From Psammoneis japonica (taxonomy: Eukaryota), in contig QPGO01000209.1 of the NCBI GenBank assembly GCA_008632985.1, positions 1-64,000 of the forward strand: a DNA stretch of 64,000 nucleotides, read 5' to 3'. Each line of letters opens with the position of its first letter. Position 1 is the stretch's first letter. Below the pieces are notes generated by a model, which saw nothing but the letters and a program-made list of their open reading frames with translations, ran no database searches and was not told where the DNA came from. Positions 1 to 57,634 of the stretch are shown in pieces. Both the position numbers and the translations under genes were made by a program.

Positions 1-269
1 CGGTGCATTAGCTCTCACCCTCTAAATTTATTGTATTGGCTGACAATGCAGGCAAATAAGTCACATATTTCTAGCTTGTAACTACCTTATAGAATAAAGA
101 AACAATCCACCCCTTCATAATTGCCATGGTGCGTTTGTTATTTTGAGCCGCGAGCCAGAAAACACTCCCAAAAACTGTTCTACAGGGCGAAATGTACTGA
201 ATCTACACAGATTCGGGTTGTACCAGGCCACGTAGAAAGTGAACGGGCCGAAAACTCCGGTACGCCCAC

Positions 270-723
270 TTAAAAGAGAATAATGACTGCTTCCATCGGC
301 AGTTTCAGTGCCTCACGTAAAGCACATGAGCGCTGACGCATACGTCTTCTTCGCGCTATCTCATTTCGGTGCTTGAACTTTTAATTCACCATTTCCAACA
401 CACTCCTGCTGACCAATGACAAGATTCTTACCATTTCCAAATTTGACCATCTTAGGCACTTGGATGTTCATGATGGCTTGACGATCAACAATGAACTTCT
501 TACCAACCACAGGTTTGGTCATATAATCTGCCATCATCTTGTCCGTTGGGCGGAACTTAATCTCAAGTTCTCCTCTCTTGGTGAGGTCAGTGATGTAAAA
601 ATACTTAATGTTGAAATGTCTGGTGCGAGTTAAAAGAGAATAATGACTGCTTCCATCGGCAGTTTCAGTGCCTCAATCACGTAAGAGCACGTGAGCACTG
701 ACGTATACGTCTTCTTCGAGCTA
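270..723 (+). repeat. Direct repeat pair of about 90 bp (270-358 and 630-723) bracketing the Copia fragment
   Basis: TTAAAAGAGAATAATGACTGCTTCCATCGGCAGTTTCAGTGCCTCA...TACGTCTTCTTCG occurs twice. Confidence 0.9.
395..630 (-). mobile_element. Copia (CoDi-type) RNase H C-terminal fragment with PPT and start of a 3' LTR
   Basis: The minus strand reads TRTRHFNIKYFYITDLTKRGELEIKFRPTDKMMADYMTKPVVG (Copia RH end motif), followed by AGCAGGAGTG and then TGTTGGAAA. Tyr codons are intact. Confidence 0.75.
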
Positions 724-830
724 ATAGCGGAATGGTGGTACATATTCTATCTCCAACAGTCACCCTCCAAGATCGTCTTTGCGGTGCGAGCAACACCCTC
801 TCTGGTGCAATTCAAGGTGCAGGCGTTCTT

Positions 831-888
831 CTACTCTCTCTCTACTCTAGTAGTAGTAGCTACTAGCTCTACTCTAGCTACTAGCTAG
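831..888. repeat. Low-complexity CTA/TAG microsatellite-like tract
   Basis: CTACTCTCTCTCTACTCTAGTAGTAGTAGCTACTAGC... Confidence 0.8.
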
Positions 889-1677
889 CAGGGCCCTGCC
901 TACAGTACCGCCCGACCTCAGGCCCACCGATGCGACCGACACCAAAAAACGACCATAACAGTAGCAACAGCCGATGCTCAATTTTGCCGCCAAACCTTTT
1001 CCTACCAGAAATACTAATGCATTTTATGGTATCTTTTTCTCTGACAAGTATGTCCATGGAAAGAGAGGTGAGACAATGTCCAAAAATGGATAAAAAATCC
1101 TTCCTATGATGCGTTATTCTGACTCCATTCTCACAACTTGCGCGTTGCAATATCTGTTCAATTGTACGTGAATCCTGGGAAAGTAAAAGCTCCAGATCCT
1201 TCCGTCAGAACGAAAAGATAGCACCCTGATGAGTGCCTCTGCTTTTTCGCGGACTACTGGAAAGAACACTTTTCCTCTAGGAAGAAGAGATTAGTGTTAT
1301 CTATACTATCACGTCGTCACCTTGATAGTTTCGAGATCAATGGTTGCAACTTGGCACATCACGGCTCATAGTAGTAGCCTATCGGAGATGATGCGAGCCA
1401 AGGTACTATAAAAGCTAAAAATGCATCTGATGAAATGAAGGATTGGAGATGAAATGTATATAGGGTTCCCACTGAACCACAATCATAGAAATATGGATGA
1501 AATGCAATCATAGAAACATGGATGAAATGCATGATGAAACACTTGATGACCTTGAAGGAACCCAAGCACGTGGACTGAGTGACTCTTGCTAGCACGCCCT
1601 CTGCCAGCACCATCTTGATGAATCCCCAAACCCCAAGCTGATGCCTTCAGCGACCATCAACAGCAGAGTGACTTCAC

Positions 1678-3082
1678 CTAAGGCGCCGTTTCCAGGCACG
1701 TGTACTTGGGGAGCTCGTTAGCGATGCGATTAGCAGAACATTGGGTCAACCCGAGATCCTTGTCTGGAAAGCCATTTATAGCACTTCTGGCGATCATGGG
1801 AAAGGTGCAGCCAAATTGCCCATGATCTGCTCCCAGCACGTGCGCGAGCTCGTGAGTCACAGTGATGTACGATCCCAACGGGTCGGCGTACGCCACCGAT
1901 GGACGGTCGGCCAAGCATAGGCCTTGTTCCGCCCTGCCGCCGATTTGCTGCCCCTTTTCGTTAATGGTCTTCTGGTTGGTGAGGTACAACAAGACGTCGT
2001 ATTCGTCGGGGTGAGCCTCCGCCACAACTTGAAGCTTGTCAAAAACATCGGCGGCCTCAGTTCCTAGGATAAGGCGTTCCATGTTCTGACCATGCATGAC
2101 AAATCGGACACTATCTTCAATGCCAGACGTTGCTGCAATCAGGCGGTTGGCGTTTTCGAGTTCTTGTAGTGACTTTTCCTCGGTCCAATCCCTTTTTTTG
2201 ACCTGGGGGTTCACGAGGATCTTTACCTTGACTAGTTTTGTCTTGCCCGAGACAGGGGTGGTGACAGGGGGGCTCCAGCATGGTGGGTTATTCACCTTCT
2301 TGCCCTTACTGCAGCTCAAGTCCAAGGTGTTGAGCAGTTCAGCAGTGCAACAGGAGATTTCCTCTATGCCAGAATAGCGGTAACCGGCATCGCACCGTTT
2401 CGGTTTTCCCTCGTTGACTAGCAATTCATCGAGCACTTCCTTGATCATTTGCGGAAAAGACCGCGTTGGATTCGCGGTGTCAAAAGGCCATTCGATTGTG
2501 AGCCCCCTAGTGTCGCAAATAAACCCTAAGAACTTAGCGGGACTGTTCTTTTCTTTCCAAACAACCTTCAGGTCCGCCGCGTCGCCACTCGGTACCACCT
2601 GTACCGGAATATAAGGCTCGAGAACTTCAAATAATTTATCGGCAAAGCCACGCCCATCATCCTCAATCTTGAAAGGTTTCTTCGCCGCGACTTCTGCCAA
2701 AGTTCTCGTATTGAGACCCACGTTCGAGGCACCACCAGTAGTTCGTAGGGTTCTCATACTTCGCGCAATCTCTGTCATTTCCCTCAAACCATTTCTCTTC
2801 TCCTGGTGGAACAAAGTCATTGCACTCAACAGGGGTTTCGAGTCTAGTGCCACCACCGCAGGCACAGCATGCAGAGGCGGCATCTTGACCGAAGTTCACT
2901 TTGCTACCAGCGAAAACTTCGCATGAATTGCCGTCACGATACCAGAGGCAATCCTTGTCTGCAGTGTCGTACCATTTCTCTTCGCCTGGTGGAACAAAGT
3001 CCTTGCACGTCCTAAGCACAGATAACACCTTCGTGACAGAGGCAAGGAAGAGAACTTCTAATGCGAAGGTAGAGATCTTCAT
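1678..3082 (-). CDS. Secreted zinc metalloprotease (metzincin, reprolysin/M12B-like) with N-terminal Cys-rich repeats; split over two frames near 2690 (possible pseudogene)
   Basis: ORF 2663-3082 has a signal-peptide-like start and two CxDFVPPGEEKW repeats with CCACGGG. ORF 1678-2883 has HELAHVLGADH (HExxHxxGxxH) with a downstream Met (FPMI). The two ORFs are in different frames. Confidence 0.6.
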
Positions 3083-3754
3083 CGTGACAATAAAGAAGTA
3101 GGAACGGTTGTTCGCTTCTTCGCTTCGGTTTTGTAGTTTCTGTTGTCAGATATGAAGAGGAAAGATAGGAAAGTGTAAGGTGAAGACAGAGTTAGAGATG
3201 ATTGTAGTTGTTGAGTCCATCGAAAGGTTCGAAGACCCAATAGCACATCATAATCGAAAGCACAAGCGGTTTACCTGTCTGACCTGTCTCCTTTCTTGGT
3301 CTCTTGCTTTCGCTCGTATTGTTGCTTTTTCTTCTTGCTTTCAAAGAAACATAGAAGGAATAAATCATAAGTAAGAAGGTGCGAGATATGAATGAGAGAC
3401 AAGGGAAGCCATCATGGGCAACAATACTGCATGGGAGAGGCACCATCGTCCATCGTTCATCATTGACAAGTGGATTCAGGATGGTGTGGTGCATGGTTGG
3501 GTACCGGTACAGTGGGTGCGTGCGCGCTGTGTTTTGGTGCGGCGTCTGTCTGTCTGCCTGCCCGCCAATCTGTCTTGAATCATCGAGTGATTCCCATCGA
3601 AAAAGAAGGCCGCAACCGACGCGACGCGACGCGACGCGGCATAGCAACACTGTAAAAAGCAAGAAGTGGTAGCGCGAACACAATAAACCACGTGAAGACA
3701 GACAGTAGAACACACTGTACAGCACGACGCGTTTTCGCTTCATCGTACGTACGA

Positions 3755-5685
3755 GGGTGTTGAGAAAGCACAGGCAGGTGTGCGTCGCAGGGCCCTGCGT
3801 GGAGAAGGGCAGCGCCCTACACAACATGGTCATGATGATCTGCACAGCTCAGAAAACAGACAAAATGCAGGAACAACCCATGATGACGGCGGTGGGTGTG
3901 CCGGCAGGCGAGGCACCCCGAAGCTCATTGGACGTCAACACAAGCAGCAAAACTCAACACATGTGTGCAGTGATGTGCTTCTGCATTTTGCTTTCAAGGG
4001 ATGCAGAGCAATGTGGCACCGCAGAGCACTGAATCACCTTTTGAACTACAGTGCAGCACTTCTCACCATGCAAGCAATGGATCGCGGGTGGAACGCAAAG
4101 ACGGCAGCCGACCGGCGGCCATCACACTGGGCACTTGCATTGTCTCGTTCGTTTTTTTTCTCTTGTTTTCTTTTTTATGAGAAGCCCTCGGCGCTTTTCG
4201 GAAGCCTGACCCGAGAACAACAATTCTGGGCAAGAGCATCCCTTGTTTAATTTTGCGAAGCTTTTGTGTGTTTGTTGCGAGTCTTTTTCGTGCACAAAAC
4301 GCGTGCAACAACACAACAATCTGCAATCGTTAAATGACACTTCTGCACATTCCAGATTGATTTCTTCCTGCAAGAAACAATCGGAAACTGTCAGCCACGA
4401 CTCTCAGCAAAGAAAACGGCAATCACAGGTGTCCCAATGGGTCATTCGCGAACAATCAAAATCGGAAACTGTCAGCCACGGCACCCAGCAGAGAAAGGGC
4501 AATTGCGCACTGAGTGTGCGTGCTGACAAGTCATTCGCGAACAGTCACACAGCATCGTGGGATTGCAGGTCCAGCATGCTGTGTCATTCGTGAATGATCG
4601 AAGTCGGAAACTGTCAGTCACGGCACCTAGTGGAGAACGGGCAATGACTGAGTGTGCTGATGAGTCATTCGCGAACAGTCACACAGCGTCGTGGGATTGC
4701 TTGAGCAACGAGGGAACTTGAATTTTCATTGGTTTAGATTGTTGAGGGGACAGGAAAGGACAAAAAGAACATTGCATGTCTCCAAACTCTTGGATTGTGT
4801 TCGTGATGACAAACAGGGTCAAGTGCACCAGCGCAACAATGCTGTGCTTCCATTGTCAAGATGTGCTTTTGCAGATCTTCTGGCAGCTGTTGTGACAGTT
4901 CTGCACAAACCATGTTTGACCCCAACAAGCTGCAAAAAACAGTGTGCCTTTCATCATGGCCCGTTCCCCCATTTTCTGCTGAGTCTCACATCGCCAGCCA
5001 CAAGAGACTCTGCACACAGCACGTCTCGGTGCAGAAAACTCCAAAGGCTTTGGAGCAAGTCAGCACATGCCAAGCTCTGCTTTTTTTGACTTGAGACAGT
5101 TTCTTCCTGCTGCACTGGGTGGGTTTTCTCTCCTTCTTTGTTGTTTCCAGCCAGCCCCAAGCAAGCCTCTCGGCATGACTCTCTCAGCTGCTCGAGCTGC
5201 ACAAGGGGGGGAGAGTGTTTGCAGCAGCTCACCCACCTCCTCTCATTTGACACAAAGCACTGCTTGCACAGAATTTGCCAAATGCAGCTTTGTTTCTCAC
5301 ACTTTGCCATCAACTCTGTCTGAAAAACCTGTTGGCTTCTCAACAACTCTGCCAGGCATGAAAGCCTGGTGATGGCGGAGTCTCCTCAGTTGAAGTCAAC
5401 AGTGCTTCAGAGCATTTTTGGGCATGTGCTCTCAAACATGAGAGTGCAGCAAATTTGGCTCACAGCAAAAGTGTCACAAACAAACAAACAATCAAACAAT
5501 GTGCTTTCCAAGATCTGAGCCCTCCTGTGGGGAGCTTTTGAAGAAGAAAAAAAGGGCTTGCTCTGCCAAGGGCTCAGGCATCTTTTTCTTCCTCCTTTTG
5601 TGCTTTGTTGCACCTCACCCTCAAACTTGAGCTTGGAGCATTGGACCAGGTTTTGGATTTGTGGTCTCCTCCTGCAAATTCATTG
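3755..5685. mobile_element. Unclassified decayed repeat, TpA-depleted; host of the Copia insertion, continuing at 12793
   Basis: TpA is lost abruptly after about 3752. The segment contains internal repeats and is interrupted by the Copia with TSD. Confidence 0.45.
4381..4700 (+). repeat. Three imperfect tandem units (starts 4381, 4462, 4604)
   Basis: Each unit begins TCGGAAACTGTCAG and contains GTCATTCGCGAACA. Confidence 0.85.
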
Positions 5686-5961
5686 TGACAGGATTTGAAC
5701 AGGATTCAGGTGCGCGCGAAATGTCACGCGCTGTTTAGTTTGCCGCGCACAGTTTTGTGTGCTTTAGTTCCGCGCGTTCGCGCGCGATGTAGTTTGCTTT
5801 CGAGCCACAAGGCTCACAAGAATAACAACAGTGGCCCGATTGTACCGACTTACACGTCTTTCGGCTCCTGTGACGGTCTCTGAGCGGAGACTCATCTGCC
5901 ATTTAGACAGCAGTGAGGAGTCATTGTTTGAATTCTTGCCATTTGCCTTCAATTTCTGTCA
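5686..5961 (+). repeat. 5' LTR of Copia element
   Basis: TG...CA ends; aligns without gaps to 12512-12787. Confidence 0.95.
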
Positions 5962-6895
5962 GATTGACAGTCTTGCTCATTGTCAACCCATTGAGCAACC
6001 GCCATCGTCGTCGTTGATTTACCGACGACTTTCAATTCTGCGTGGACCTCCGTGTGTGTTCTACGTACATCGGCAAGTCTGCGCGCATTCAATGCCAGGC
6101 ATCGGCAGGAAGTTAACATCACCGTCAAGTCTCCTTGCCGCTGAATGTCTGGATTGATTGCGCTGCCTTTAATCGCTGAAGACATGCATTCAGCGGTTGC
6201 ATCCAAGTCCATCCTTGATCCTCATCCCTTGATGTGCCCATTCAACGGTTGACGGTCAAGAACCCCACACATTCAAGGATCTTCGTCACTGAAGACATGT
6301 GCACATCTGTGTCTTCACGGCCAAGAACTTGTGCCCACTCTTTGGACTGCGGCTTTGCTGCCACTCTACAAGCACACCGAGTCCATTGCACCTGATCTAC
6401 CCTGGACTGCTGGTGCTCTGCAGTTCTGCTGGGTCCACGAGGATGACTGTGAGAGCAAGCAGCCGTGATTGCAGCCTGCATTTGGGCGAGGGTGAATTTC
6501 CCACGTTTGTTCGTTCGTCCACAGCGCCTGACGCCTGCGTCAACTGGCCAGCCTGATCGGGAAATCCAACCGATGTAAAATGAGAACGGTTCGGGGGTCT
6601 TGTCCACCTCCAGTCAGCTTGCCTGCAGGGGTTTACAACCCGCTGCTCCGCTCGCAAGCAACCCAAAGCGCCGCTGGCTGCGGGTTCGGACGTGCCGGCA
6701 CAACTCTACGGACCGGATGGGAAGTTTAGCACTTGACAACGAACGGGATAACACAACCCGGCGACTTCTGATTTTAAGACAGTTCAAGATTTCAAGTCAA
6801 GTCCACTTCAAGTCAAGACTGTTCCCACTCAAGTTTCAAGTCCACCTCCGCGTCCCAACAAGAATCACTTGTCCTGACACCGCTTTTTGTCTGCC

Positions 6896-9800
6896 ATGGT
6901 TCTCACTCGTCAGCAACAAACCGATGGTTTCGAGCACGTTGTTGGAACCGCACTTGCCCAAGGTGCTGGAAGCCCTCTTCGTTTGGCTTTGACCCATGAC
7001 GACACGGACTCGCACCAAGAACTGTTCACGTTCATGCCTTCCCAAATCGACTCGCTTGAGTGCGACAACGGCGCTGATGTGATCCCATTGCCCCGAGGTC
7101 AAAGAACATGTTGGCAGCTCTAGTCAGTCTGCACATTGTCAAAGCACACGAAGGCCTTGATGTTGCCAATGACTCCTCGTTGTTCATGCATGAGGAGTTC
7201 CTTGCCTGCCGCCTCAGTCCCGACTGCATGTCTTCTGTGTCCGTCGGCAGCTCACCTCTCGCACCTCCGCATGTCACCAACCCGACCAAGGCACGCGACC
7301 CGGTGCGAGACTTCAAGCGAGGCATCAAGCGTGACCCCACTGCTTTCACGGCTCTCAAATCCGACAAGCAGTGGCACACTTGGCACACCTCACTTGTGGC
7401 ACAAGCCCGTGCCCAAGACGTCGAGTGCATTCTAGACTCGTCGTACAAACCGACCAGCCCCGAAGACAAACTGCTCTTTGCTGAACAGCAAAAGTGCATG
7501 TTCGCCATCTTCGAACGCATCCTTCTCACCGACAAGGGCAAGGCTCTCATTCGTGAAAATGCAGGGTCTTCTGACACCCAGACCGTCTGCCGCGCCTTGT
7601 CCGAGTGCGCGCTTGCCTCCACCCACGCATCTGTCGAGTCCTCCACCTTGCTCACGCACCTCACCACCGCACGCCTTGGTGATGGTGCTTGGAAAGGTCC
7701 GACCCACGGGTTCATCCTTCATTGGCAGGATCAGTTGCGCAAGTGCAAGGCACTCATCCCGGCCAGTGACCACTTCTCTGAAGGACAAAAGCACGTCATG
7801 CTCGAAAATGCCACACATCCTGTCGAGGAACTCCGCGCCGTCAAGAACCAAGCTGATCAGCATTGCACGCAGAGTGGCAAGAGCCTCACATGCGATCAAT
7901 GTTGTGGCTTGCTCCTCTCCGCGGCAGCTCAATGCGACAGCACGTTTCAACCCAAGACGACACCTCAAGCTCCCCGACGCGCCACACACGCACACGACAT
8001 CTGCTCCGAGGAACCATCCGATGATGTGTTCCATGACATCGACAGTGACATTGACGTCCTTCAGGCCAACGCTGCCTGCACCCGCGGCCCCAGCCTCACG
8101 GTGACCAATGGAAACGTCTCCCTCCCGACCACCAACGGATTTGGGATTCGTTGCCCCATTCCTCCAAGGCGATCATCCTTGAGCATTCTCGTCCGCCTCC
8201 CCGCAACCCGCGAGCCAGCAACCACCATGAGTCTGTTGCGGTCAACCTTCACGACCAACGACTTGGGAGTGACGGTGATGTCAACTTGTCCAACACGACT
8301 CCTGCTGACTCTGGTGACCCCGCTCCAAATGTGGGTGCCACTTCAGATGATCCCATCCTGGCGCACCTCACCAAGTGCAAGCCACTGCCACCCGGTGATC
8401 TGCAACCTGTTGTCTCCTAACCAAGCCCCCAACGCCAGTCGACCGGGCCCATCCGCTGCTCCCTCTACCTCGCCTGCTCCTGCAGATGACATGGAACTTA
8501 ACGGCCGCACTTGCCGCCGCGTCAATGACCACAATGTCATTTGCTCTGCCTCCGCTCATCGCTCCACACGCACTGGTGCTCTGGTCGATCGTGGAGCCAA
8601 CGGCGGCATTGCTGGCGACGACGTTCGCATCATTGCACGCACCTCTCGCCAAGTCAACGTTCAGGGCATTGACGACCATCAATTGGTGGACATCCCCATT
8701 GTCACCGCTGGTGCCATCATTGAGACACAGCGTGGTCCCGTCATCGCCATCCTCCATCAGCGCGCATGCACGGGAAAGGGCAAGACCATTCATTCCTGCG
8801 GCCAGCTCGAATGGTGCAAACATGATGTCAACGATCGCTCTGTCAAGGTGCCCAACGGCTTGCAACGTGTCGCCACCCCTGATGGCCATGTCATCCCTGT
8901 TGACATCAAGGGCGGCCTGCCTCATGTTGCCATGCGACCCCACACTGACGCCGAATGGGACACCCTGCCCCATGTCATCCTCACCGGTGATGACACATGG
9001 GATCCTTCCGTCCTCGATCACTCTGTCTCTGACGACGACCAGTGGTGCGACGCGATCTCTGACCTGCAGGATGATCCCACTGCCAACCTGTTTGACGAAT
9101 GCGGCAACTGCCGTCACCGTGTCGTTGTCCACAAGGCCATCATGTCCGCCTCCTTGTCTGCCGATCACGCGTCCGCCCTCGATGACCACCTCATTCTGAA
9201 TGACGACGTGTTCTGCGAGTGTCATCTGCACGCGATTGACCCCAAGGACGACGATGTTCCGCCCCTGGAGCGCACTGTGCAGCCCAAGGACCCCCCCCCC
9301 ACGAGTCTCTTTGGCCTTGCTTTGGTTTCCAACCTGCCGATGCGGTTCATCGTACTTTCGACTGCACCACGCAGTGCGCCCGCATGCCCGCCGGTGCACA
9401 CCTTGAGAAGGCCCACAAATCGCCCAACCCCGCCCTTAATGTGCACCGCCGCAATGAGCCTGTCGCCACTGACACCGTTCATGCCGACACCCCAGCCGTC
9501 GACTCTGGTTGCACCAGCGCCCAACTGTTTGTTGGCACCGAGTCTGCCGTCACTGACATCTACGGCACCAAAACGGACAAAGAGTTTGTCAACACACTCG
9601 AGGATCAGATCCGTGAGCGTGGTGCTCCATCCAAACTCATTGGCGACCATGCTCAAGTTGAGATCAGCAACAAGGTGCTCGGATCCTACGAGCCCTCTTT
9701 GTCTCCAGCTGGCAAAGTGAGCCTCACCAGCAACACCAAAACTTTGCCGAACGTCAACACCAGACCGTGAAGCACATGGCGAACACTGTGATGGACTGTT

Positions 9801-12564
9801 TTGGTTCGCCTGCCCACACATGGCTGCTGGCGCTCATGTGCATGTGCTTCATCCTCAACCATGCAGCATCCCCACATCTCCACTGGTGCACGCCCCTCGA
9901 GACTCTCACTGGCTCCACCCCGGACATCAGCCCATTGCTTTGCTTTCACTGGTGGGAACCCGTGTGCTTCCACCTCGATGACTCCGATTGGCCGTCCGAA
10001 TCCCGTGAGTTGTGTGGACGCTTTGTTGGCATTGCTGAGCATGTCGGCCACCAGATGACCTTCAAGATTCTCTCTGACGAGACTCAGAAGATCCTCTGCC
10101 GGTCCAACGTACGATCCGCCACCACCGATCCTGCCGTTCGAAACCTGCGTCTTGATCCTCCTGATGGGGAGCCACCTGAACCCATCATCAAATCTCGCCA
10201 TGACGACAACCCCGTCGATTCACCCGATGGGGAGATCAGGACACCCAAGATGCCAGTTTTCGATCCGCAAGACATCATCAGATGCACCTTCCTCATGCAG
10301 CCACAAGAGGACGGACAACGCCACAGAGCTCGCATCGTCAAGGCCGTCGAAGACCACGAATGGAAAGTGAACGGCAACCCCGAGCTCACCAAGTTCGTCT
10401 GCTCTGTCAACAACGACGAACACGAGGAAGTCCTGGCCTGCAACGACATCATGAATCACATTGAGCAAGAAGACGAAGACACTGCTGTTTGGAAATTTCA
10501 ATGCATTGTGTCACACGAAGGACCTCTGAAGCCTCATGACCCAACCTGGAAAGGCTCAAGCTACAACATCATGCTTGAATGGGAAAGTGGGGAGATCACG
10601 TCCGAGCCTCTTGCCATCATCGCCAAGGATGACCCTGTCACCTGCGCCATCTGTGCACGAGAGAACAGACTTCTCGACACTGATGGCTGGAAGCGGTTCC
10701 GCACCATCGCGAGGCGCCAGAAGAAGTCACTCCGCATGGCCAACCAAGCCAAGCTTCGCTCCTTCCACACTGCACCTCGCTGCAAGTGCGGACACGAAGT
10801 TCCCCGGAACTGCAAACACGCCATGTCACTGGACGAACGCAACGGCAACCGCAAATGGGGAGACGCGACTAATCTCGAGATGGACCAACTCGATGAATAC
10901 AAAGTCTTTCATGACTGCAGGCCCTCCGAGTCTTCCACTCCTCCTGCGGGACACAAGAAGATCCGAGTGCACCCAGTGTACGACGTGAAACACGACGGTC
11001 GCCACAAGGCACGACTCGCAGCCAATGGGCACCTCACGGACGCACCCATCGACAGTGTATGCTCCGGAGCAGTCTCCCTCCGTGGCCTTCGGCTGATGAT
11101 TTTCCTGGCCAAACTCAATGAGTTGGAGACATGGGCCACCAACATTGGCAATGCCCACCTTGAAGCCACCACCAAGGAGAAGCTGTACATTGCAGCTGGA
11201 CCCAAATTTGGCAAACTCGAAGGCCACATTCTTGTCATCCACAAGGCCCTGTGTGGACTGCGCAGCTCCGGCCTTCGCTGGCACGAGCGCTTCGCCGACT
11301 GCCTGCGAGCTGAAGGTTTCTTCCCCTGCCGCGCCGAACCCGACATTTGGATGCGCAGGAACGGCGACCACTGCGAACATGTTGCCGTTTGTGTGGATGA
11401 CCTCGCCATTGCCATGAAGGACCCTCAATCTTTCGTCGACACTCTCACGGAAAAGTGCAAGTTCAAGCTCAAGGGTGCGGGACCGATTGAGTTCCATCTG
11501 GGCTGCGACTTTTCCCGGGATCCTGATGGCACCTTGTGCCTGTCTCCGCGCAAGTGCATCGAACGCATGGTCGACAGCTGCACACGACTGTTTGGGGAGA
11601 AACCCCACCACCAACGCCCTGTCACCTCTGGAGAAGGGTGACCACCCCGAACTGGACACTTCCGAACTGCTGGGGCCCGATGGCATTCAACAGCTCCAGT
11701 CTCTTGTTGGTTCACTCCAATGGGCAGTGTCCCTTGGTCAAATTGACATTGCCACGGCCGTCATGTCACTCTCTAGCTTCCAAGCTGTGCCCCGTCAAGG
11801 CCACTTGGATCGTGCCAAACGCGTCTGTGGGTGCCTCTCCAAGATGCGACACGGCGCTCTCCAACGTTTGCACGGAAGAGCCCGACTGTTCGGATCTCCC
11901 TGCTCCGGCCCATGAGTGGATGCATTCCGTGTGCGGCGAAGCAGAAGAGATGATCCCGAAGGACGCTCCACCGCCCCTTGGCAAGTTTGTCACCACCACC
12001 CACTGCGTTGATGCAAACTTGTGCCATTGCATGCTCACCAGATGCCCTGTCATGGGAATGCTCCACTTCCTCAATAAATTCCCGGCTGATTGGTTCTCTA
12101 AGAAGCAAGCCACCGTGGAGACTGCAACCTGCGGGTCTGAATTTGTTGCCGCAAGGACTTGTGTCGAGCAGATCATCGACCTGCGCATCACCCTGCACTG
12201 CCTCGGTGTCCAGATCCGTGACATCAGTCACATGTTCGGTGACAACAAGTCGGTTGTAGACAGTGCCACCATCCCGCACTCCAAGTTACACAAGCAACAC
12301 ACCGCACTGTCGTTCCACCGTGTGTGTGAGGCAATTGCCTCTGGTTGCCTTGAGCTCCACTTCATTGAAGGCTCCCGCAACCCTGCTGACATTCTCAGCA
12401 AGCATTGGGGTCACTCCCAAGTCTGGGACCTTCTCCGCCCCCTCATGCTCTGGAACTTCATTCCATCCGAAGTCGAATCTGTTTCTGTGACTCCTCAAGC
12501 AAACTGGGGAGTGACAGGATTTGAACAGGATTTGGGTGCGCGCGAAATGTCACGCGCTGTTTAG
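6896..12564 (+). pseudogene. Copia gag-pol polyprotein, frameshifted near 7110, 9300, 9690, 11610 and 11865
   Basis: gag FKRGIKRD; protease LVDRGANGG; integrase NEPVATDTVHADTPAVD; RT VYDVKHDGRHKARL, KALCGLRSSG and HVAVCVDD; RH VETATCGSEF, FGDNKSV and NPADILSKHW. Confidence 0.93.
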
Positions 12565-12787
12565 TTCACCGCGCACAGTTTTGTGTGCTTCAGTTCCATG
12601 CATTCGCGCGCGATGCAGTTTGCTTTCGAGCCACAAGGCTCACAAGAACAATGACAGCAGCCCGATTGTGCCAACTCACACGTCTTTTGGCTCCTGCAAC
12701 GGTCTCTGAGCAGAGACTCATCTGCTGTTTAGACAGCAGCAAGGAGTCATTGTTTGAATTCTTGCCATTTGCCTTCAATTTCTGTCA
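12512..12787 (+). repeat. 3' LTR of Copia element
   Basis: Matches the 5' LTR and is followed by the TSD CATTG. Confidence 0.95.
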
Positions 12788-12792
12788 CATTG

Positions 12793-15700
12793 TGAGAGAC
12801 TTTGGCCTCCACACAGTCAACTTCTCCAGCCAGCCAATGAGCTGTGTCATGTTTGTGTTCTTCTAAGAAGGAGGGTGCAAAAAAAATGGTCCCATCATTT
12901 CTGCTTTTCACACATCCCAGCAACAAGATTGAAGATCTTTCTCCATTTGATCACAGTGCTGTGTCCCCACGGCATGCTGAACAAGCTCCGCGCACAAGAG
13001 CCAAGACATGCCAAAGAGCTGCTTCCTTGGCTTCTGACATTGTGGCATGAATGCACTCTCAGTGGCAGCAGGGCAGAGCTCACACATGCCAAATTTTGTG
13101 GTGGGAAACATGTCCATTGGCAAAATGTTGAAAACTTCTAAGATGAGGAGGTGGGCAGCACCAGGGAAAAGTGGTTCATTTGGCTGCCATGGGGTTGTCA
13201 AATTTTTTGTCTTGCCTGATGAGTGATGTGTTGAGCTCCTTTCTTGTGGGTCCAAATGTCATCCATTTTGAATTTAAAATTCTCATCTGTGGGATTCCAG
13301 CTGAGCTTGTTTGGCACCCATTCTCTCAGTTTCCTCAGAGCCAAGGCTTCCACCTGGGTTGTTGGGGCCATGCAGCAGGGCTGCACTGGCTGTGTTGTTG
13401 GAAGATGGCAGCACTCTCTCCACTTGCCATTTGCAGCTCTCCACTCCATTGTGACTGGCAAACAAATGGACAACAGATGTCAAATGAAGAGTTTCTGTTA
13501 AAATCATGCAGCAAAACATCATTTGGCAATCATTGCAAAAATGTGGCTGACAGCAATCTGCTTTCCATGCATGTGCACATGGTCTGTCTTGCCTTTGCTC
13601 ACATCTGCAGATCCTTGAGCTGATGGCAGGGTAGGATGCAGGCCAATGCTGCTGAGTCAGTGCCACAAACCACAAAATGATGGGTGCTGCCAATGAGAGT
13701 CTCATCCTTGTGCCTCCTGCCTGGAGCACTTGGCAGCAGATGTGCCAGCCAACTGTGCAGCAGCAACAAATGATTGATGAGGCAATCCACTCTCCATGCA
13801 CCATGGGTGCAGGGTCCATCTTGCATTTGCTCATGGAGTCTGCAGATCCTTGAGCAGATGACCAGGGATGCTGACCAATGCTGCTGAGACAATGCCACAA
13901 ACAAAGACCAAATGTTGTCAACAGTCTGGCGCACCTCCACAGTGTGCTTGGCAGATGCATCAGCCAAGATGCAACAAAAAGGGGGGTCTTGGGGGCACAA
14001 CTTCAGACTGACTGCCATGCATCCACAATGTGAGGAGTGCATTGGGTGGGCTGACAGTCATGGTTTTGGGGGGCAAAAGAAACTCCTCCAGCACTCAAAA
14101 TTTTGTTGCCACCTCAGACTCTGAGCAACCAATTTAGGTTGCTCTCTTTGTGTGGGTCAAGTCCACAAGCTCTTGTCAAGTCTCACTGAAGCCCATCTTG
14201 GCAGCCATTTGGACACTGTTGCCATGAACTCTTGGCTGTGTGGAGGGTGCAATGGGCACTTGCTTTGTCATTGGCCCTGCAGGAGACACACACAAGAGAA
14301 GATGCACTCTGGAAACTTGTTGTGCAGTGACAAGTTGGGGTCAGACCAATTGGGTGCAGCCATGCTGTCATGAGCATGAGCTAGACTGCCTTCAAATGAA
14401 CTGAACTGGACCTGGGGAAAAGCTGCAACAACTGCCATTGGGGTGTTGCCTGCATGGTGGAAACACACTGTGGGCAACAGCCATTGAACCATTGAACAAG
14501 TCCTGCAGCTGATTCACAAAACAAGTGCAATGATGATGACAATGAAAGGTGGCCAATGGTTTTCAAAAATGGCAAAACACAAAAAGTGAAACCTCAACTT
14601 GGAGTGCTTCCTGCTGGCCCAAACAGACAGACAGGTGGTGATGCCACACCAGAAGCCATTTCCTCACACAGCTCAATTCAATTTAATTCAATCCCAAAAA
14701 TTGCACAGCCATTGCTGGCTGCTGCCTGCAACAAGCTTTTGGCAATGCCTGGCATGCCTTTCAGTCCACAACTGCAGACAGGGTCAGAGCACATGTGCAC
14801 AACAAAACAAGCCCAAGTCCACATTTGAAGTTGTGGGGTGGAAACACTGCACAACTGACAATCCTTGTAGATCCTCAATCAGTGTCAAGCAAAGCAACAG
14901 CCAGTCTTGCGACTGACACTGCTTCCAGTCAATGTCATTTGTGGTCCTGATCTTCTGCCAAGATGTTCTCTGTTGGCCTGACAAACCATCAAGACAGATG
15001 GTGGTGAGAGATGGGGTTGTTGCAGAAGGTTCTGCATTCTTCCCCTGCCTGCCCATCTAAGATGCTGTTGTTGCAGCAGAGTTTCAGACTTCTCCAAGTC
15101 ATCCACTTGCTTCTGACTCCTCCACATGTCCCAGGCAATGTCCTGTAAGTGCGTGATTGGACCTGAGACCTGGGACAGGCCTGTGTTCCTTCCATCCAAG
15201 CATTCACAATGAGCCTGTTGCATGCATGCCCACTTGATGACAAGGAATCATCCTCTGGCAAAGAAGTTCTTGCTCAAATTTTCTTGAGCCAAGAAGGCAG
15301 TTTTGACCTTGCCACATTCTGAGTGGATTGTCAGAGGAGGAGTCTCATTGTGCCATGAAGAAAGAAGCCACATTGTGCCCACTTTGATGTCTGGATGTGT
15401 GACCCATTTTGATGTGGCCAATCCTCTAGTCCAAGCAGTTTCTTGCTCCACAGTTCTTGTGCCAAGAAGGATTTGCAATGTGGCATGTGATCCACAGTGG
15501 TGGGGGTGATGTCAGAACGTGAGAGAGGGCAATGGGCGGTGCTCTGTGGGCGTGTCTTGACAATCAGCTCATTGTCTGCGATCTCACAAACATCTCAAGG
15601 CAGGTGCGAGGTGTGGTGTCGAACAAGAAAAACAAAGACTGACAGCGGAAAGACCTTCTTGGATGATTCCACGCATGCACGCACCGCACCGCACACCATG

Positions 15701-16250
15701 CGTGCACGGAATGGAAGCTGCAAATGGTCACCTCTGTGACTCACAAAAACATCCCAGACAACACGCAGCCAGCCACAGCTGTGCCAACCCTGCAGTGCTG
15801 GCTTGACAGTTTGCTTTCCAGCTGCTCTGCTGTGGGTGCCAGTCTGAGCAAAGATGTGGTGTGGAAGTTGTTAAAAAGTGCTTTTTTCAAATCAGATCCA
15901 CTCCACAGCTTTCCCTCAATGCTGCGCTGAGAAAAGACCCTTTGCAAAGTTCTGGATGGCATGCGACTCATCCTCTCCCAATTGTCCTGTCCCAAGTCCT
16001 TCTTTCCTCATGCCTCCACAGACTCATTTCAACACTGGGTAACTCGCCCAGCAGATGACAACCCAAAATCTGTGCTCTCAAGAGCAGGACAACCTTTCCC
16101 ACTGCTTTTTGCATCAGCAAGTGTGCTTGTTGAGCTTTCATTCATGTTCATGAGCTTGGGAACACAACGTGTGGCTGTGAGATCAAACCAAACCCCAGCT
16201 GACCTACATGCAAAGTCATGTTGCCTTTTCTGCACTCTGCAACCTCTCAT
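12793..16250. mobile_element. Unclassified old repeat block, depleted of both TpA and CpG
   Basis: Composition. Internal duplicated motif CTGCAGATCCTTGAGC near 13606 and 13840. Homology to 34598-34685. Confidence 0.4.
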
Positions 16251-19200
16251 CACTTTGTCTGTCTCCAGCATGTCTTGTCCAACAGAAAATTTTGCCTGAC
16301 CGACGACATGATCTTCATGAACAGATCACTCAGACTTGTTTCCGTTCCCTCCTTTGCAATCCCAACAGTCCCTGCAGCAACAGTTTTGCGGTTGTGGTGA
16401 TGTGCAATGGAGTGATGCTTCTTCTTTAGCGTAGACTCAGGAACAAAGCAATTCTTGCAGACGGCTTCGTTGTCGCAAAAGACATTCGTTGATCCCTCGA
16501 TCGGCACCCCAAACATTCAAAGCTTGTGTTGCAGTCCTTCAATGAGCTCAACAGCATTCTTAAGTGTGACAATCTTGGCTCCAAATGCACTCGCCTCCAC
16601 AGCATTCTGATGTTTCGAGCACCACATGATGGGCACCTGATTGACAATCATCAAGATGCCTGTGTGACTGCGGCGGTTGGCAACATTGCCAGCATGGTTG
16701 GCATCCACAAAACAATGTGTTGACACTGCATCACCTCAAGCGGGTGGTGCATTTGTCAGGATGTCTTTTTTGGCATCTTGGCAAAAGTCGTGCCAACCAC
16801 ACTTCACGAATCGCGATTCATCAATCTTGGGATGAGCCAGGTCAAAAGCCACTTGGCACTTTGGAACATGTTTGAGGTGCACAAAGACATGCAGCACCTG
16901 TTCCAGATGACCAATGCAAGGCAAGCAGACATCAACAACACTTCCAAATGAATGTTGACTCCACCGAGTTCCACAGCCCAAACCAACACGCCAATCAACT
17001 CTTGACAACATGTGGTCCTTCGGCATTTAATTTGCCAGTTGTGTCCAGCTTGGGCTTGCATCCAACATTTTCCTTCTTTGCTGAGTTTGTCCTCAACATT
17101 CTGAACAGCGGCCTTGCAGCACTTCTCTGCAGACATTGACCAACAGGTGGTTCCATCGGCCAGAGTCATCTTGGAGAAAGCGCAGCTCTGAGATGAGAAT
17201 CAGGCTCAGCTGCCTCATCACCCTTGAGCTTGAACTTGGACCTGATGCCATCCATCATCTTCATTGGCTCATGGCTGATCAACAACATGTCATCAACATA
17301 AACCAAAATGTGTTCACAGCACTTGAGTCCATCGGGTTTCACCACAGGTTGCATCCACACATCCGGATTGGCCTTGCTCGGCTTGCACCCTAGATCACAC
17401 AGCGTCTCCACCAGAAATGCCCCAAATGCCACTCCTGAGCTCTTCAATCCACAGAGAGCTCTGACCACAATCATGATGCATCCTTTGTCTTCACCAAATT
17501 CTGAACCTGCATGGGTCCAAATCTTCTCCCTGCAAGGGGCAGTGAGGCAGGTGTTCTGGATGTTGCACGCAAAAACTTGCAAGCCGTTGAGCACTGCAAG
17601 TGTAAGTGCAATTCTCACTGAATCCTGCAAGATGACAGAGGAGCAGGTGAGAGTTGCAGGGGCTTCAGCAGTGTGGCCTCCAGCCACCATGCGAGCTTTG
17701 CGACGAAAATTTTCTCCCATCTTGACATCGAAAATCACATGGCATTTCACTTCCTGGCAACCAGGCGCCATGTCTTCTAGCCCCCCCCTCACGTTTCTCA
17801 AATGCAACGTGTCATTCTTCATCTCCATGCAAATGGCATCCCACCAAAGGGCACCACCATTTGCATGATCTAGCTGGATTGCCTCCTTGACGCTCTTGGG
17901 AATTCAGACACCAAACTCATGTGTCCTCAGCCAACATTTTGACTTGACCTTTGCAATGAAACGCTTGCGGGTCCTCACAATGTGAGGAACCCACCAAGCA
18001 AACACCACCTCCTCTGAGATCTTGTGCTGGATGGAAAACTTGGTGACTTGGACAGGGAAGCTCTCCTCAGCGTCCTTCAAGTCTGTCCATGTCGCACTCC
18101 CATCCTTCCATTGGAACAAGAGTTCCCATCCCTTGGCAGTCTTGCACCTCTTCCAAATGCCTTGCTCAGTCTCAAAGAATGCAGATTCCGGAATGTCCCC
18201 ATTTGCATGGCAATCAACTGTCTCGTCAAATGGAACATGCCGGTTCCCGTCTTCGTTGATCTGTGCAATCAAATTGGTGGCAATGGAGTTAGCAGACAGT
18301 GCAGCAAGATGCCCCTCAGGGTGCTCCACCTCATGCATCCCAGCATTGAGGATGGGATTGTCATTGACTGTTCCAACCAGACTGCTGTTGGCATCTCTTA
18401 ACCTCTTTGTAACACAAGCAAATTCGGGGCCATTGTCATCCCTCGGGAGTGCCACTTTCATGTTGAGACAACCCCAATCAGTTGCTTCCGGCAAGGCTTC
18501 CTTGTCTTTCTTGTCGTCATCTTCATCAATTGCTTCTTCCAATGACATGATGCAATCGCACTCATTGAGGAATTCGTCATCGCATCCAAGGTGGTCCTTC
18601 CAATCTTTGGGGCTGATCTTTCATTCCTCGTCATTGGGGAAATCTTGCTCCCTCAGACGGCACATGATCTCCTTGTCAAAACAGTCAAACTTAACCTTGT
18701 TCTCTTGGGCAGCGGCTTCTAAGTTGGTGACTTGTTGAATGGATGTCCTTGACATGACACTGCCGGTCTCTGTTAAAACATGGTGCAACATGAGACTCCC
18801 CGTTCTGTGAGATGCACCAAGCCACCTGCCAAGTTTCTCATCACCAAGACCTGCTTTCTCCCTGCACCAGACTCAATCATAAAATCCAAAGTCCAGGCAC
18901 TCCGAGATGTCCACGGGTTCTCTGAGAATGTTTTCAAGCAGCACTCCAGCATCCAAATGATGCAATCTAAGGAATGTGCAAGACATGATTTCGCAAGTCC
19001 TCCGTGCAAATCTGCAATCCCACAGTTGCCGCGGCACATGCTTCTTGACCATGATGTGGAACCACTTGCATCAAACTTTGTGCACAACTCCTTCAGCAGG
19101 GTTCTGGTTGTGTTGATTGGGTTCAACAACATGGCAGTCAATGCCTTCCTCACGCACCATCTTCATGAACTCAGTGCCCAGTTTTGTCTGTTCCTTGGAA

Positions 19201-22200: not shown

Positions 22201-22500
22201 GTGGGGTTCTTGCTTGCACAGCCAAAATCTTGAGCCCAATGGACGAGAGCCTTGAGTTGACAACTGCAAGCCAAACCAAAATGAGTGCACCCTTCAGCAA
22301 CCATCCTCCTTGCATGTGACAAAGCAAGAGAGTCAATGTCATCTTCCTTGAGGTCTTCTAAATCATTGAATGACACAAAATCCACCACAATTGAAGCTTG
22401 GTGAGCCAGATCAACAAATCCAATCCAATCAAGAGCTGTGTCAATTGGATCTGGAGGAGAAGCCGCCACAGTGGTGCCCACACCAGTGGGAAAACAGAAT
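16250..22500 (-). mobile_element. Second Ty1/Copia (CoDi-like) element, heavily decayed; LTRs not resolved
   Basis: gag about 20500-22500; integrase DGSKEQ and NQNPAEG about 19071-19283; RT IFDVKMGENFRRKARMVAGGH, RALCGLKSSG and LVYVDD at 17166-17828; RH FVDANHAG and FCDNEAV at 16250-16726. Confidence 0.9.
20789..21325. mobile_element. 537-bp non-autonomous TIR element (MITE) inserted in Copia gag
   Basis: Imperfect TIRs CTGCTGAAACGCAAAATTTGCGA and CTGCCGAATCGAAAAATTTGCGA. 4-bp TSD CTGG at 20785-20788 and 21326-21329. Removing it restores gag NWHQLRKEN. Confidence 0.9.
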
Positions 22501-22994
22501 TGTGTGAGAAAACACATGAGATGATGGTGTTTCTCTTTTTGTGCTGACAACAACACACAGCCATTAGAAGCATGGAGACTGGCCATGTCTCCTCACTGCT
22601 TGTGCGCACACTGATGCTGGACAATGACAATCATTGTGCGCCCATTGATTGTCTGACATTCGTTGTCGCAACCATGTCACAATGGCACAATTGTTTCTTT
22701 TCAGTTGTTTGTCACTTTTTGTCAAACCAAACGTGAGTCATGACTTTGCTCTGACAAAGTGAGCAAATCTGGCTGCCAGATGGGCTCAGCCAGTCACAGT
22801 CTCAGTGCAACAATGTGAGTGCAGCCAACAAGATGCTTCTGGGCCTGTTGCAACTGCAACGATTGCAACAAGTGAGACTGATTGGTGGTCATGGTCATTT
22901 TCCCACCAACACCATGTCACAGTCCCGCCACTTCAACTTGCAGAGCACAGCATCCAATCATTGACACATCGGATTCCACTTTCTCCAAAGTTCA

Positions 22995-23202
22995 GTGTGC
23001 GCCCATTGGCAGGAGCTGCCATGGGTGGAGACGCCACAGAAATCATGCAGGTGCCATTTTTTTTCAGGGTTGTGTCTCATTGTCTTCATTTCTCTAAGCA
23101 AAGCTCAGTGTGTGCCCACAGTGGAAGCTGCCATTGGTGTGGACGCCATGAAAATCATGCAGGTGCCTTTTTTTTCAGGGTTGTGTCTCATTGTCTTCAT
23201 TT
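22995..23202 (+). repeat. Tandem duplication of about 100 bp
   Basis: AAATCATGCAGGTGCC-T tract-CAGGGTTGTGTCTCATTGTCTTCATTT occurs twice. Confidence 0.8.
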
Positions 23203-23989
23203 GCAAACATTTAAGATGAAAGATCAGATGCTTCAAACAACACAATGACATTGCAATTGTCAAAATGTCAAAGAGAAGGATGTCCGTGGTGCTCTTTTTC
23301 TTCATTTGGACACTTGTCAGCCACCAGCAAATCATGACTTCACGACATCTGTGCAAGTTTTGTGAAATGTTTCATCAGCATCATCTTCATCACATGCCTC
23401 TCCAATCAACTTGACAACAACCCACAAATGGTTGGGTGCAACAAGCGGAGAGTGCACAATGTTGCACAATGCATCATCATCAGCAACATGTTCTGTCTTG
23501 CACTTTTGTTGTCTCTTTGTGCTTTGTTGCCCAATTCTTGATGAACTGAGACAAAGCTGAAGACATGATTTGGTGGTGTTTTCATTGTTCATTGCAATCA
23601 GATGAGTCCTGAAAGGCCAGCCATTCTCCTCTGGATTTTCATCATTTTTGTAACTGACTCTCATGGAAACATCTGAAAGTTGAAAACCTTGATCTGCCAG
23701 CAATCTTTTCCTCATGGAAAGTGACATTCCAAGCACAATGCAATCTGTGCTGTTGCCGCTGATCTTGACAGGAATGCAGTCAACAATGGCATTTTCAAGA
23801 AGGTGCCAGAGGAAACATGCTCAAAATCTCTTGCACAGCCACCTCCAACCCACACCATTGTCCTCTGAGCAAGCAAGAACCTCAAGTGGAAAAAATGGAA
23901 CACCAGGTGCGAGCATGTGGATTTTCAAGATGAGCTGTTCAAGGACATTTTGTTTGCAGTTTGTCCAGATGCTCACATCAAACAAGCTG

Positions 23990-30127: not shown

Positions 30128-30518
30128 TACATTTGCACAGGTTGGGCCTGATGTTGCGTCGCCATGCATAAGCGCAGAACTAATAAATGTTTGACATGCC
30201 TTAAGTGTCAAAAAGCGCCTTTAAATAACCTCTTAATTGGCATGAATAGTAGAAGAGCCACGTACGCAGGCACAGAATTCGGTCAACGAGCTCGATTTGG
30301 TACTGTGTGTCTCGTCCACAGCGCACAAAGAGCTCGAAACATACATGGTCATTTTTCTTCTGCAGGGGACAGTTTGCGTTTAAGTCTATACCGGTACAGA
30401 CGACGTTGTGCATTGAAGAAGGCGAAGTCTTACACACATGATGACGCGGAGGAATGCCCAAATTCGAGAAGCCCCCAACTGTGTCACGAAACAAAACTTG
30501 CGAACACACACACGAAGA

Positions 30519-57600: not shown

Positions 57601-57634
57601 GCGCAGCAAGAAGGTGAGACGGCGTGGAAAATTT

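Follow-up and report, generated by a model that had tools for sequence, protein, structure and literature searches.

The two long terminal repeats (LTRs) of the retrotransposon at positions 5686–12787 of a 64,000-nucleotide stretch of Psammoneis japonica DNA (assembly GCA_008632985.1, contig QPGO01000209.1, positions 1–64,000 of the forward strand; hereafter the window) differ from each other exclusively by transitions inside pyrimidine-purine (YR) dinucleotide steps. The element is a Ty1/copia LTR retrotransposon, nested in an older repeat block. It is probable that the LTR pair records a mutational process that acts on DNA after integration, is confined to transposon-derived DNA and drives both TpA and CpG to CpA and TpG. 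The changes have a distinct spectrum, are restricted to transposons, prefer a particular sequence context and differ both from repeat-induced point mutation (RIP) and from the decay of CpG alone.

Differences between the two LTRs

The LTRs (5686–5961 and 12512–12787) are 276 bp each with TG...CA ends, as delimited by a repeat finder, by MAFFT and by a gap-free comparison; the raw output of the repeat finder was a single direct pair, 5685–5966 and 12511–12792, of 91% identity. The gap-free comparison gives 25 mismatches, all of them transitions, with no transversions and no gaps inside the LTRs, and all 25 sit in 18 YR steps. Seven of these steps are CA in one LTR and TG in the other (CA in the 5′ LTR and TG in the 3′ LTR in three cases, the reverse in four). 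Five are TA in the 5′ LTR and have become CA (four) or TG (one) in the 3′ LTR, and six are CG in the 5′ LTR, read as CA (four) or TG (two) in the 3′ LTR. The YR steps common to both LTRs are 15 CG, 18 CA, 19 TG and two TA. By eye, no trinucleotide preference is evident at the six CG sites that the 3′ LTR has lost, whose neighbours are mixed. A sequence-only reading of the window had earlier arrived by hand at the same 25 differences, 18 sites and three classes of seven, five and six, and the computational alignment reproduces every one of these counts.

YR steps occupy 144 of the 276 LTR positions; the chance that 25 random changes would all fall there is 3e-8, and the chance that 25 of 25 would be transitions under a 2:1 bias is 4e-5. 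In the standard model of reverse transcription the LTRs are identical at integration, and the 25 differences therefore represent DNA-level events that took place after it. The proposal that they are targeted, post-integrational and distributed over both strands is supported.

The p-distance between the LTRs is 0.0906 and the Kimura two-parameter (K2P) distance 0.0999. None of the 132 non-YR positions has changed, which places the background pairwise divergence below 2.3% (95% bound), while five of the seven TA steps of the 5′ LTR (1.25 after log correction) and six of its 21 CG steps (0.34) differ in the 3′ LTR. The loss of TA is at least 30–50 times, and that of CG at least 12 times, faster than the background. 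The expectation that dating by LTR divergence would be inflated thus holds: a K2P of 0.10, against less than 0.023 at non-YR sites, overstates the age of the insertion several-fold, and dating of this kind is badly misleading here.

Polarity of the changes

The polarity was examined through proteins related to the reverse transcriptase (RT). A large protein collection contains 779 such relatives at E<=1e-10; the best 120 of the 779 show 47–63% identity, and the only eukaryote names among these 120 are diatoms, Fistulifera solaris and a Nitzschia species. Judged by these relatives, the host would probably be a diatom or some other stramenopile. A dinoflagellate host with hydroxymethyluracil was also considered and gains no support; a 21-nt dinoflagellate spliced-leader motif has 0 matches when up to 3 mismatches are allowed. 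The alignment of the pol pieces of the element used the first 40 of these 120 relatives, and columns with at least 80% of the sequences sharing one residue were evaluated. Tyrosine is kept in only one of 24 conserved Tyr columns; 15 have become Cys (TAY>TGY, where Y is a pyrimidine), four His (TAY>CAY), and one column each has F, W, S or A. Among the columns conserved for any other residue, 414 of 530 are kept, a figure lowered by the part of these columns that lies out of frame (Tyr versus others, Fisher p=7e-14). In the in-frame open reading frame (ORF) at 9662–11641, aligned to the first 60 relatives, Tyr is kept in one of 17 columns (12 Cys, two His) and other residues in 259 of 287. Four of the Tyr to Cys changes, at 11932, 12004, 12130 and 12199, and one Tyr to His change, at 12412, lie in the C-terminal pol piece. 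At the catalytic motif of the RT, for which we take the copia consensus to be YVDD, the element reads CVDD.

The single-step changes at conserved columns are 18 TA>TG, 11 CG>CA, seven TA>CA and five CG>TG, and A:T to G:C changes at TA make up 25 of these 41 YR-type changes. The same depletion is visible in the overall composition of the proteins: the retroelement ORFs in the window, of all three types present, contain 0–1.8% Tyr, versus 4.1% in the relatives, and 2.3–5.3% Cys, versus 1.3%, while three non-transposon ORFs in the window have 2.0–2.7% Tyr. The loss of conserved Tyr codons to Cys and His implies that TA was ancestral and was converted to TG or CA, and since such copies cannot be functional, the changes reflect decay rather than adaptation of the elements. 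The alignments and composition together indicate that TA and CG are the ancestral states and CA and TG the derived ones, as the sequence-only reading had assumed; the retention of Tyr in one of 24 columns is matched by the presence of 92 TA steps against 1192 expected in the neighbouring old repeat block (12788–30000).

All 120 listed relatives were screened for their Tyr content. One of them, P0048, contains 0.9% Tyr and has kept three of 16 conserved Tyr (six His, five Cys) but 22 of 25 Arg, and a second, P0056, has kept nine of 19 Tyr (four His, four Cys). P0082 shows the reverse, with Tyr kept in 21 of 22 columns and Arg in only six of 29 (nine His, six Cys, four Gln), a pattern that reads as CpG decay alone. 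It follows from these contrasting patterns that the TA and CG components are separable and that the TA component is also found in other data sets. A search for the DNA of P0048 gave 67 pattern matches in metagenome contigs, none of which was confirmed.

Composition of the window

The window splits into three dinucleotide states, gene-like islands, younger retroelements and old blocks (Table 1), whose edges are sharp at 500-bp resolution; the 500-bp bin at 34001, for example, has 29 TA and 30 CG, and the next bin one TA and five CG. The old blocks are low in TA and CG and high in CA and TG, so CA and TG are the end state for both. The young elements are poor in TA but near normal in CG, which places the loss of TA before that of CG. 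The most extreme TA depletion is seen in 43001–46000, where 43800–46200 has three TA (143 expected) and only a single TA remains in the 2-kb bin at 44001.

These data bear on two alternatives that invoke a known chemistry. If methylated CpG decay were the only process, all 18 sites would have been CG at insertion, with CA and TG arising by single hits and TA by a double hit. Real CG>TG and CG>CA changes do exist, at six LTR sites and in 16 single-step changes at conserved pol columns, and the available part of PMC9998398 describes CG methylation of diatom transposons, maintained by DNMT5a. Both CpG depletion and an excess of CpA and TpG are present, but the changes are not exclusive to CpG, as TpA observed/expected (o/e) ratios of 0.02–0.21 demonstrate: TpA, which double hits would generate, is nearly absent from old repeats instead of accumulating there. 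CpG decay cannot account for the loss of conserved Tyr codons (TAY) in 23 of 24 columns, mostly to TGY and CAY. In the LTR pair, it would place all five double hits in the less-hit 5′ LTR (Fisher p=0.0056), it would make the hits in the two LTRs correlated (p=0.0014), and it would need an ancestral LTR with about 35 CpG in 276 bp, which is about twice the expectation. CpG decay as the sole process is for these reasons very unlikely. A model in which the seven CA-versus-TG sites derive from TA, together with about seven invisible sites changed in the same direction, implies an ancestral LTR TA count of about 21 versus about 17 expected, and independent decay of the two LTRs is not rejected under it (p=0.10).

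The other alternative is a fungal-type RIP or RIP-like C-to-T process (CpA>TpA, TpG>TpA), in which the TA states of the 5′ LTR would be derived. It shares with the present case the restriction to repeats, the exclusive occurrence of transitions and the involvement of both strands. The closest named RT relatives among the 120 listed are diatom proteins, and many diatoms encode DNMT4 enzymes of unknown function that are related to fungal RID, as stated in the available part of PMC9998398. The indices used to recognize RIP are inverted in the transposon DNA of the window, with TpA/ApT at 0.02–0.23 and (CpA+TpG)/(ApC+GpT) at 1.41–1.97. For RIP, the respective thresholds are >0.89 and <1.03. Tyr codons are destroyed and TA is not created, and the stop words on both strands of the element, 27 TAA and 25 TAG against 304 TGA, run the same way. 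We regard RIP as extremely improbable.

Other repeat pairs in the window

Ten repeat pairs of at least 78% identity were found in the window; three besides the LTR pair are gap-free, and these follow the pattern of the LTRs. The pair 62665–63061 and 63102–63498 has 31 transitions, 29 of them in YR context, and four transversions; the pair 47838–47968 and 48130–48260 has nine transitions, all in YR context, and no transversions; and the pair 47993–48130 and 61736–61873 has 13 transitions, 11 in YR context, and one transversion.

The first of these is a tandem 397-bp repeat of 91% identity, which adjoins a gypsy-like ORF and has ten CA-versus-TG sites. Six TA steps survive in its first copy only (62665–63061), another one-sided pattern. 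An old tandem of 720 bp (27451–28169 and 28169–28886, 82% identity) has 22 CA-versus-TG sites, 13 sites with CG against CA or TG, one shared TA and 30 transversions, and resembles an advanced phase of this decay.

Sequence context of TA loss

The surviving TA steps in transposon DNA (359) were compared with those in gene-like DNA (403). RTAY (R, purine) accounts for 23 of 359 in transposon DNA versus 124 of 403 in gene-like DNA, with ATAT alone found once versus 33 times, while YTAR accounts for 164 of 359 versus 73 of 403 (chi-square 105). The ratios of the ten tetranucleotides are described by a roughly multiplicative model in which the loss of each A depends on the base 3′ to it (TAT > TAC >> TAA, TAG); ATAA fits poorly, and CTAG is among the best-surviving contexts (ratio 2.5). 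The survivors point to A>G at 5′-TAY-3′, or, equivalently, to a T>C change favoured in RTA. Surviving CG steps are enriched in GCGC and CCGC words.

A further possibility is that the element was edited as RNA before reverse transcription, by an ADAR-like A-to-I conversion at UA, and that its copies were dead on arrival. Tyr>Cys changes, which correspond to A>G on the sense strand, do outnumber Tyr>His by 15 to 4 (p=0.019), and on the sense strand of the copia interior TpG (o/e 1.62) exceeds CpA (o/e 1.36). The TAY preference, however, leads to an excess of Cys over His at Tyr codons without any bias of strand. A transcription-strand bias was considered as the cause of this excess and set aside, as the TAY context accounts for it. 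Antisense-type TA>CA changes are common (seven of 25 TA changes in pol) and the old blocks are symmetric, with 1877 CA and 1872 TG. The 25 differences, moreover, separate the LTRs of one insertion with an intact target-site duplication (TSD), and TA-type changes occur on both strands. RNA editing could still contribute to the interior of the element, but as the explanation of the pattern it is quite unlikely.

Family copies in a public sequencing run

The copia family is very abundant in the public run X1, where the summed contig depth is 80,000–670,000 over the LTR versus 60–98 in the flank; 4955 X1 contigs were placed on 1.6 kb. X1 may not be independent of the assembly, as it may come from the same sample, and its library type is not on record. 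Over 5686–7000 the depth of the LTR is thousands of times that of the flank and several-fold that of the interior, suggesting many solo LTRs. A joint leads from 6871 back to 5686, and loose ends occur at 6884/6885, pointing to structural variants or module exchange near 6.88 kb.

The family copies differ among themselves at 104 variant places, with 20 A>G, 15 C>T, 32 G>A, 29 T>C and eight transversions. The states of individual sites come from 40 of these 104 places, six of which are in the LTR and none at the 11 sites where only one LTR has changed. At 5742, 5833 and 5915, the second bases of three of the seven CA-versus-TG sites, A makes up 59%, 62% and 80% of the depth, and at 5914/5915 TA exceeds CG by at least 15 points, in partial support of a TA origin. 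At 5725/5726, where both LTRs have CA, 99% of the family depth is CG. This is one of five places (5726, 6288, 6444, 6503 and 6867) at which the family majority is CG (91–99% of the depth) and the element has CA or TG, as decay of CpG alone would also have it.

X1 also bears on the possibility that modified bases of heterochromatin were misread during sequencing or assembly, so that TA and CG appear as CA and TG. Base-modification miscalls in some long-read assemblies are transition-only, motif-specific and strand-random, which resembles the pattern found here, and the X1 contigs hold only 0.50 of the element's sampled 31-mers. An 848-nt X1 contig of single-copy depth, anchored in the unique flank, nevertheless matches 5386–5712, 327 nt with no TA (24.6 expected) and no CG (16.5 expected), without a single difference. 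It also confirms the first 27 bases of the LTR (5686–5712), including the CA at 5707. Random modification-induced miscalls could not coincide at about 40 sites in two assemblies. In addition, the X1 copies vary by the same spectrum, and the two unrelated database proteins P0048 and P0056 carry the same Tyr-loss signature. An artefact of this type is highly improbable.

Asymmetry between the two ends

The 5′ LTR is the less decayed of the two, with 21 CG and seven TA against 15 CG and two TA in the 3′ LTR. With the polarity as given above, all 11 single-change sites represent losses in the 3′ LTR (binomial p=0.001). This part of the asymmetry noted in the sequence-only reading stands, but its suggested cause, the adjacency of the 3′ LTR to the old repeat block, does not. 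The element sits inside that block and both of its flanks are equally decayed, including the TA-free and CG-free upstream stretch at 5386–5712. A positional gradient from the old block is accordingly rejected.

The better preservation extends beyond the 5′ LTR into about 0.8 kb of adjoining DNA: 20 TA steps are found in about 1.0 kb at 5736–6775, against about 26 in the other 5.7 kb. Decay at the 5′ end may run at about half the pace of the rest, for example if the promoter region is less exposed to silencing, or a younger family copy may have converted this end. The latter leads to a rather unlikely alternative, in which the decay of TA and CG is real but the asymmetry, and perhaps some of the CA-versus-TG sites, stem from ectopic gene conversion or mis-polishing among thousands of copies, with no difference in rate along the element. 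In its favour, the family is very abundant in X1, a tract converted among copies that differ almost only at YR steps would look just like this, the joint and loose ends near 6.88 kb indicate that the 5′ module recombines within the family, and the TA-richer zone ends near 6800. The TSD is intact, however, the three classes of differences are interleaved along the LTR without tract structure, the 5′ LTR has itself decayed at the seven CA-versus-TG sites, and the flank-anchored X1 contig confirms its first 27 bases.

Points that weigh against post-integration decay

Several observations fit less well with decay of TpA and CpG in resident transposon DNA. The TAY rule describes the LTR sites imperfectly, since none of the seven CA-versus-TG sites has the RTAY context and two of the five TA sites changed in the disfavoured direction. 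In X1, CA (45%) and TG (55%) coexist at 6675/6676 in a CTAG-type context that would be expected to resist TA loss. Some family sites look CG-derived, and the seven CA-versus-TG sites of the LTRs may be a mixture. Confirmation of LTR bases by X1 is limited to 5686–5712, and the 0.50 share of words in its contigs also counts here, although it may reflect simplification of contigs in a very high-copy family. The ancestral state assumed at the 18 LTR sites is carried over from coding sequence and composition. For the asymmetry there is a single LTR pair, and a younger copy that converted the 5′ end would produce the same picture. Lastly, in three older or shorter and gapped repeat pairs the YR context is less prevalent: 22986–23091 and 23099–23202 have eight transitions, three of them in YR context, and five transversions; 759–835 and 21232–21157 have five transitions, two in YR context, and one transversion; and 16144–16231 and 34598–34685 have 11 transitions, six in YR context, and three transversions.

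Anatomy of the element and other features of the window

The coordinates of the element and of its surroundings are collected in Table 1. The CATTG copies that flank both LTRs identify a single insertion with its TSD. The RT is of the copia type (Pfam RVT_2, PF07727, 77 bits versus a cut-off of 31.6), and RVT_2 is the only Pfam model detected in the element, with no match to the gag, protease or integrase (rve) models. An integrase upstream of the RT, which is the domain order of copia, may be represented by the pieces at 9240–9770 and 9662–10900; they have no Pfam rve match and pair in alignments with N-terminal sequence of relatives whose RVT_2 lies farther along. Within the 64-kb window blastn at E 1e-5 gave no other family copy, and a degenerate pattern from the LTR end had no matches in viral contigs and none in metagenome contigs of public collections.

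At least four shifts interrupt the reading frame of pol, near 9240, 9680, 11600 and 11880, though the LTRs have no indels; no long homopolymer occurs in the neighbourhoods inspected, and real indels and assembly errors are both possible. As TAA and TAG are almost gone, many ORFs arise on both strands, 22 of them at least 100 aa long within the 7.1-kb element, and gene callers would over-predict at 5686–12787.

Table 1. Features of the copia element and compositional regions of the window (o/e, observed/expected)
Feature	Position	Strand	Basis or remark
TSD CATTG, upstream copy	5681–5685	+	same 5 bases directly after 3′ LTR
5′ LTR, 276 bp, TG...CA	5686–5961	+	repeat finder, alignment
Internal stretch adjoining 5′ LTR, relatively more surviving TA	5962–6800	+	13 TAs at 6020–6775; TA o/e 0.21 over 5962–7100; no homologue gives a TA baseline
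Long open frame upstream of integrase-like piece, expected gag/protease region	7078–9720	+	no Pfam match; Tyr 0.1%, Cys 3.9%
Integrase-like piece, other frame	9240–9770	+	aligns to N-terminal part of relatives; 31/47 conserved columns identical; Pfam rve not detected
Integrase end and reverse transcriptase	9662–11641	+	RVT_2 E 2e-21; conserved Tyr lost 16/17
RT catalytic motif CVDD	11390–11401	+	Tyr column at 11390 conserved in relatives; codon here TGT
C-terminal pol piece, expected RNase H region	11527–12564	+	no Pfam match; in frame from about 11880
Purine run GGGGAG, expected polypurine tract position	12506–12511	+	read from sequence, directly before 3′ LTR; putative function
3′ LTR, 276 bp	12512–12787	+	repeat finder, alignment
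TSD CATTG, downstream copy	12788–12792	+	matches 5681–5685
Upstream flank, old decayed repeat DNA	4001–5685	.	TA 6 vs 111 expected; CG 51 vs 100 expected
Downstream flank, old decayed repeat block	12793–30000	.	counted 12788–30000: TA 92 vs 1192 expected; CG 265 vs 965; CA+TG 3749 vs 2145
Gene-like islands	1–4000, 30001–34000, 37600–42500		TpA o/e 0.51–0.64; CpG o/e 0.86–0.89
Younger retroelements	copia interior, LINE-like 48.8–54.4 kb, gypsy-like 54.5–62.7 kb		TpA o/e 0.11–0.21; CpG o/e 0.83–0.93
Old blocks	4001–5685, 12788–30000, 43800–46200		TpA o/e 0.02–0.08; CpG o/e 0.27–0.51; CpA and TpG o/e 1.5–1.76

Two other retroelements lie on the minus strand of the window, a LINE-like (long interspersed nuclear element) one at 48802–54350 (Exo_endo_phos E 2e-5, weak RVT_1) and a gypsy-like one at 54542–62725 (Integrase_H2C2 E 8e-13). 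Both have a GC content of 51–62%, are Tyr-poor and are split over several frames, and they may be nested, as 47993–48130 is repeated at 61736–61873. An inverted pair of ORFs, 37609–39816 (+) and 40402–42513 (−), encodes thrombospondin type 3 repeats (Pfam TSP_3, E 9e-11 and 1e-7) with internal repeats of 63–76% identity, and both ORFs are inside a compositionally normal island. The ORF at 1678–2895 (−), of 405 aa, ends in a HExxH...H metalloprotease-like motif seen in the translation; it has no Pfam match, and the large protein collection yielded no relative of it at E 1e-5.

Proposed course and chemistry of the decay

In the proposed course of events, the element would have inserted into an already decayed repeat block, and both LTRs would have lost TA since. 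Two components would be at work. The first, fast and favoured at 5′-TAY-3′, would convert TpA to TpG or CpA (A:T to G:C), and the second, slower and resembling the decay of methylated CpG, would convert CpG to TpG or CpA (C:G to T:A). The seven CA-versus-TG sites would be TA steps, some perhaps CG, that were resolved oppositely in the two LTRs, and the 3′ LTR would additionally have lost five TA and six CG that are still present in the 5′ LTR.

The CG part is likely to be deamination of methylated CpG. The TA part would, as a guess, be enzymatic, since spontaneous decay should be neither so fast nor so complete. As a conjecture on the chemistry, the simplest combination would have two hydrolytic deaminations act on silenced repeats, that of adenine to hypoxanthine, read as G, at TAY and that of 5-methylcytosine to T at CpG. 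Adenine deamination at TAY would resemble the action of tRNA adenosine deaminases, which work in a UAC context. Alternatively, and equally as a guess, an oxidised or otherwise modified thymine at RTA could mispair with G. A DNMT by itself cannot explain A>G.

Taken further, the data make it conceivable, though we put this forward tentatively and with less than even confidence, that an undescribed enzyme-driven genome defence carries out A-to-G changes at 5′-TAY-3′ on either strand of resident transposon DNA, beside CpG decay, as a counterpart of RIP in function but its opposite in chemistry and in compositional outcome. If true, this defence would strip Tyr codons and the stops TAA and TAG, would act at tens to hundreds of times the background rate, and would be the first known case of DNA-level hypermutation of adenine (or thymine) in the repeats of a eukaryote. 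The two unrelated environmental sequences P0048 and P0056 suggest its presence in more than one organism. A TAY-specific adenine DNA enzyme, or an RTA-specific thymine one, would, if it exists, be of interest for base modification and base editing.

The decay also complicates annotation: with TAA and TAG lost, decayed transposons display long spurious ORFs in each of the six frames, their proteins lose Tyr, and Pfam sees only RVT_2 in the present element. In this genome, silenced DNA can be recognized by a simple compositional mark, the joint depletion of TA and CG.

Comparison with known systems

No description of repeat-specific TpA loss was found in the literature searched, which does not prove its absence from print, and the available part of PMC2806351 holds nothing on mutation spectra. 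The TpA loss is best described as a variant of repeat-targeted hypermutation that matches no pattern found described, and there is a real chance that it reflects a new enzyme system.

Enterobacterial depletion of CTAG, attributed to very-short-patch repair that turns T:G mismatches into C:G, is similar in being a bias linked to repair or modification, in the change of TA to CA or TG and in the depletion of a TA-containing word. It is, however, bacterial, specific for a tetranucleotide and modest, whereas CTAG is among the contexts that survive best here.

ADAR (A>G) and APOBEC (G>A) edit retroelements as RNA or nascent cDNA, on one strand and before integration. ADARs, which are animal enzymes, favour a 5′ T/U neighbour and a 3′ G. 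Common to both cases are deaminase-type transitions clustered in retroelements and A>G with a 5′ T neighbour, but in the present element the LTRs diverged after integration and on both strands, and the 3′ preference is for Y rather than the G of ADAR.

The decay of methylated CpG in silenced transposons of vertebrates and plants corresponds to the CG>TG/CA component, which is likewise slower and confined to transposons. Such decay offers no explanation for the disappearance of TpA, for the Tyr>Cys/His changes or for the TAY context, and here TA is lost faster than CG. Some basidiomycetes show a CpG-targeted, RIP-like hypermutation (TpCpG), for which we know of no described TpA component; it shares the CpG target in repeats with the window, which shows the TpA component and no evident TCG preference.

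RIP of Neurospora and other ascomycetes, which is set off by duplicated sequences in the sexual phase and depends on a RID-type DNMT, is a further parallel. Both processes are confined to repeats, consist only of transitions, act on both strands and hit both copies of a duplicate, and in both the rates are far above the background, coding capacity is destroyed and the domain edges are sharp. RIP converts C:G to T:A, mostly CpA>TpA, and thereby enriches TpA, while here the dominant change is A:T to G:C at TpA, with TpA almost eliminated and CpA and TpG accumulating. In a lineage where RID-like DNMT4 has no settled role, repeat-targeted hypermutation, so far known as a set of C-to-T processes, would thereby gain a second chemistry, A:T to G:C at TpA.

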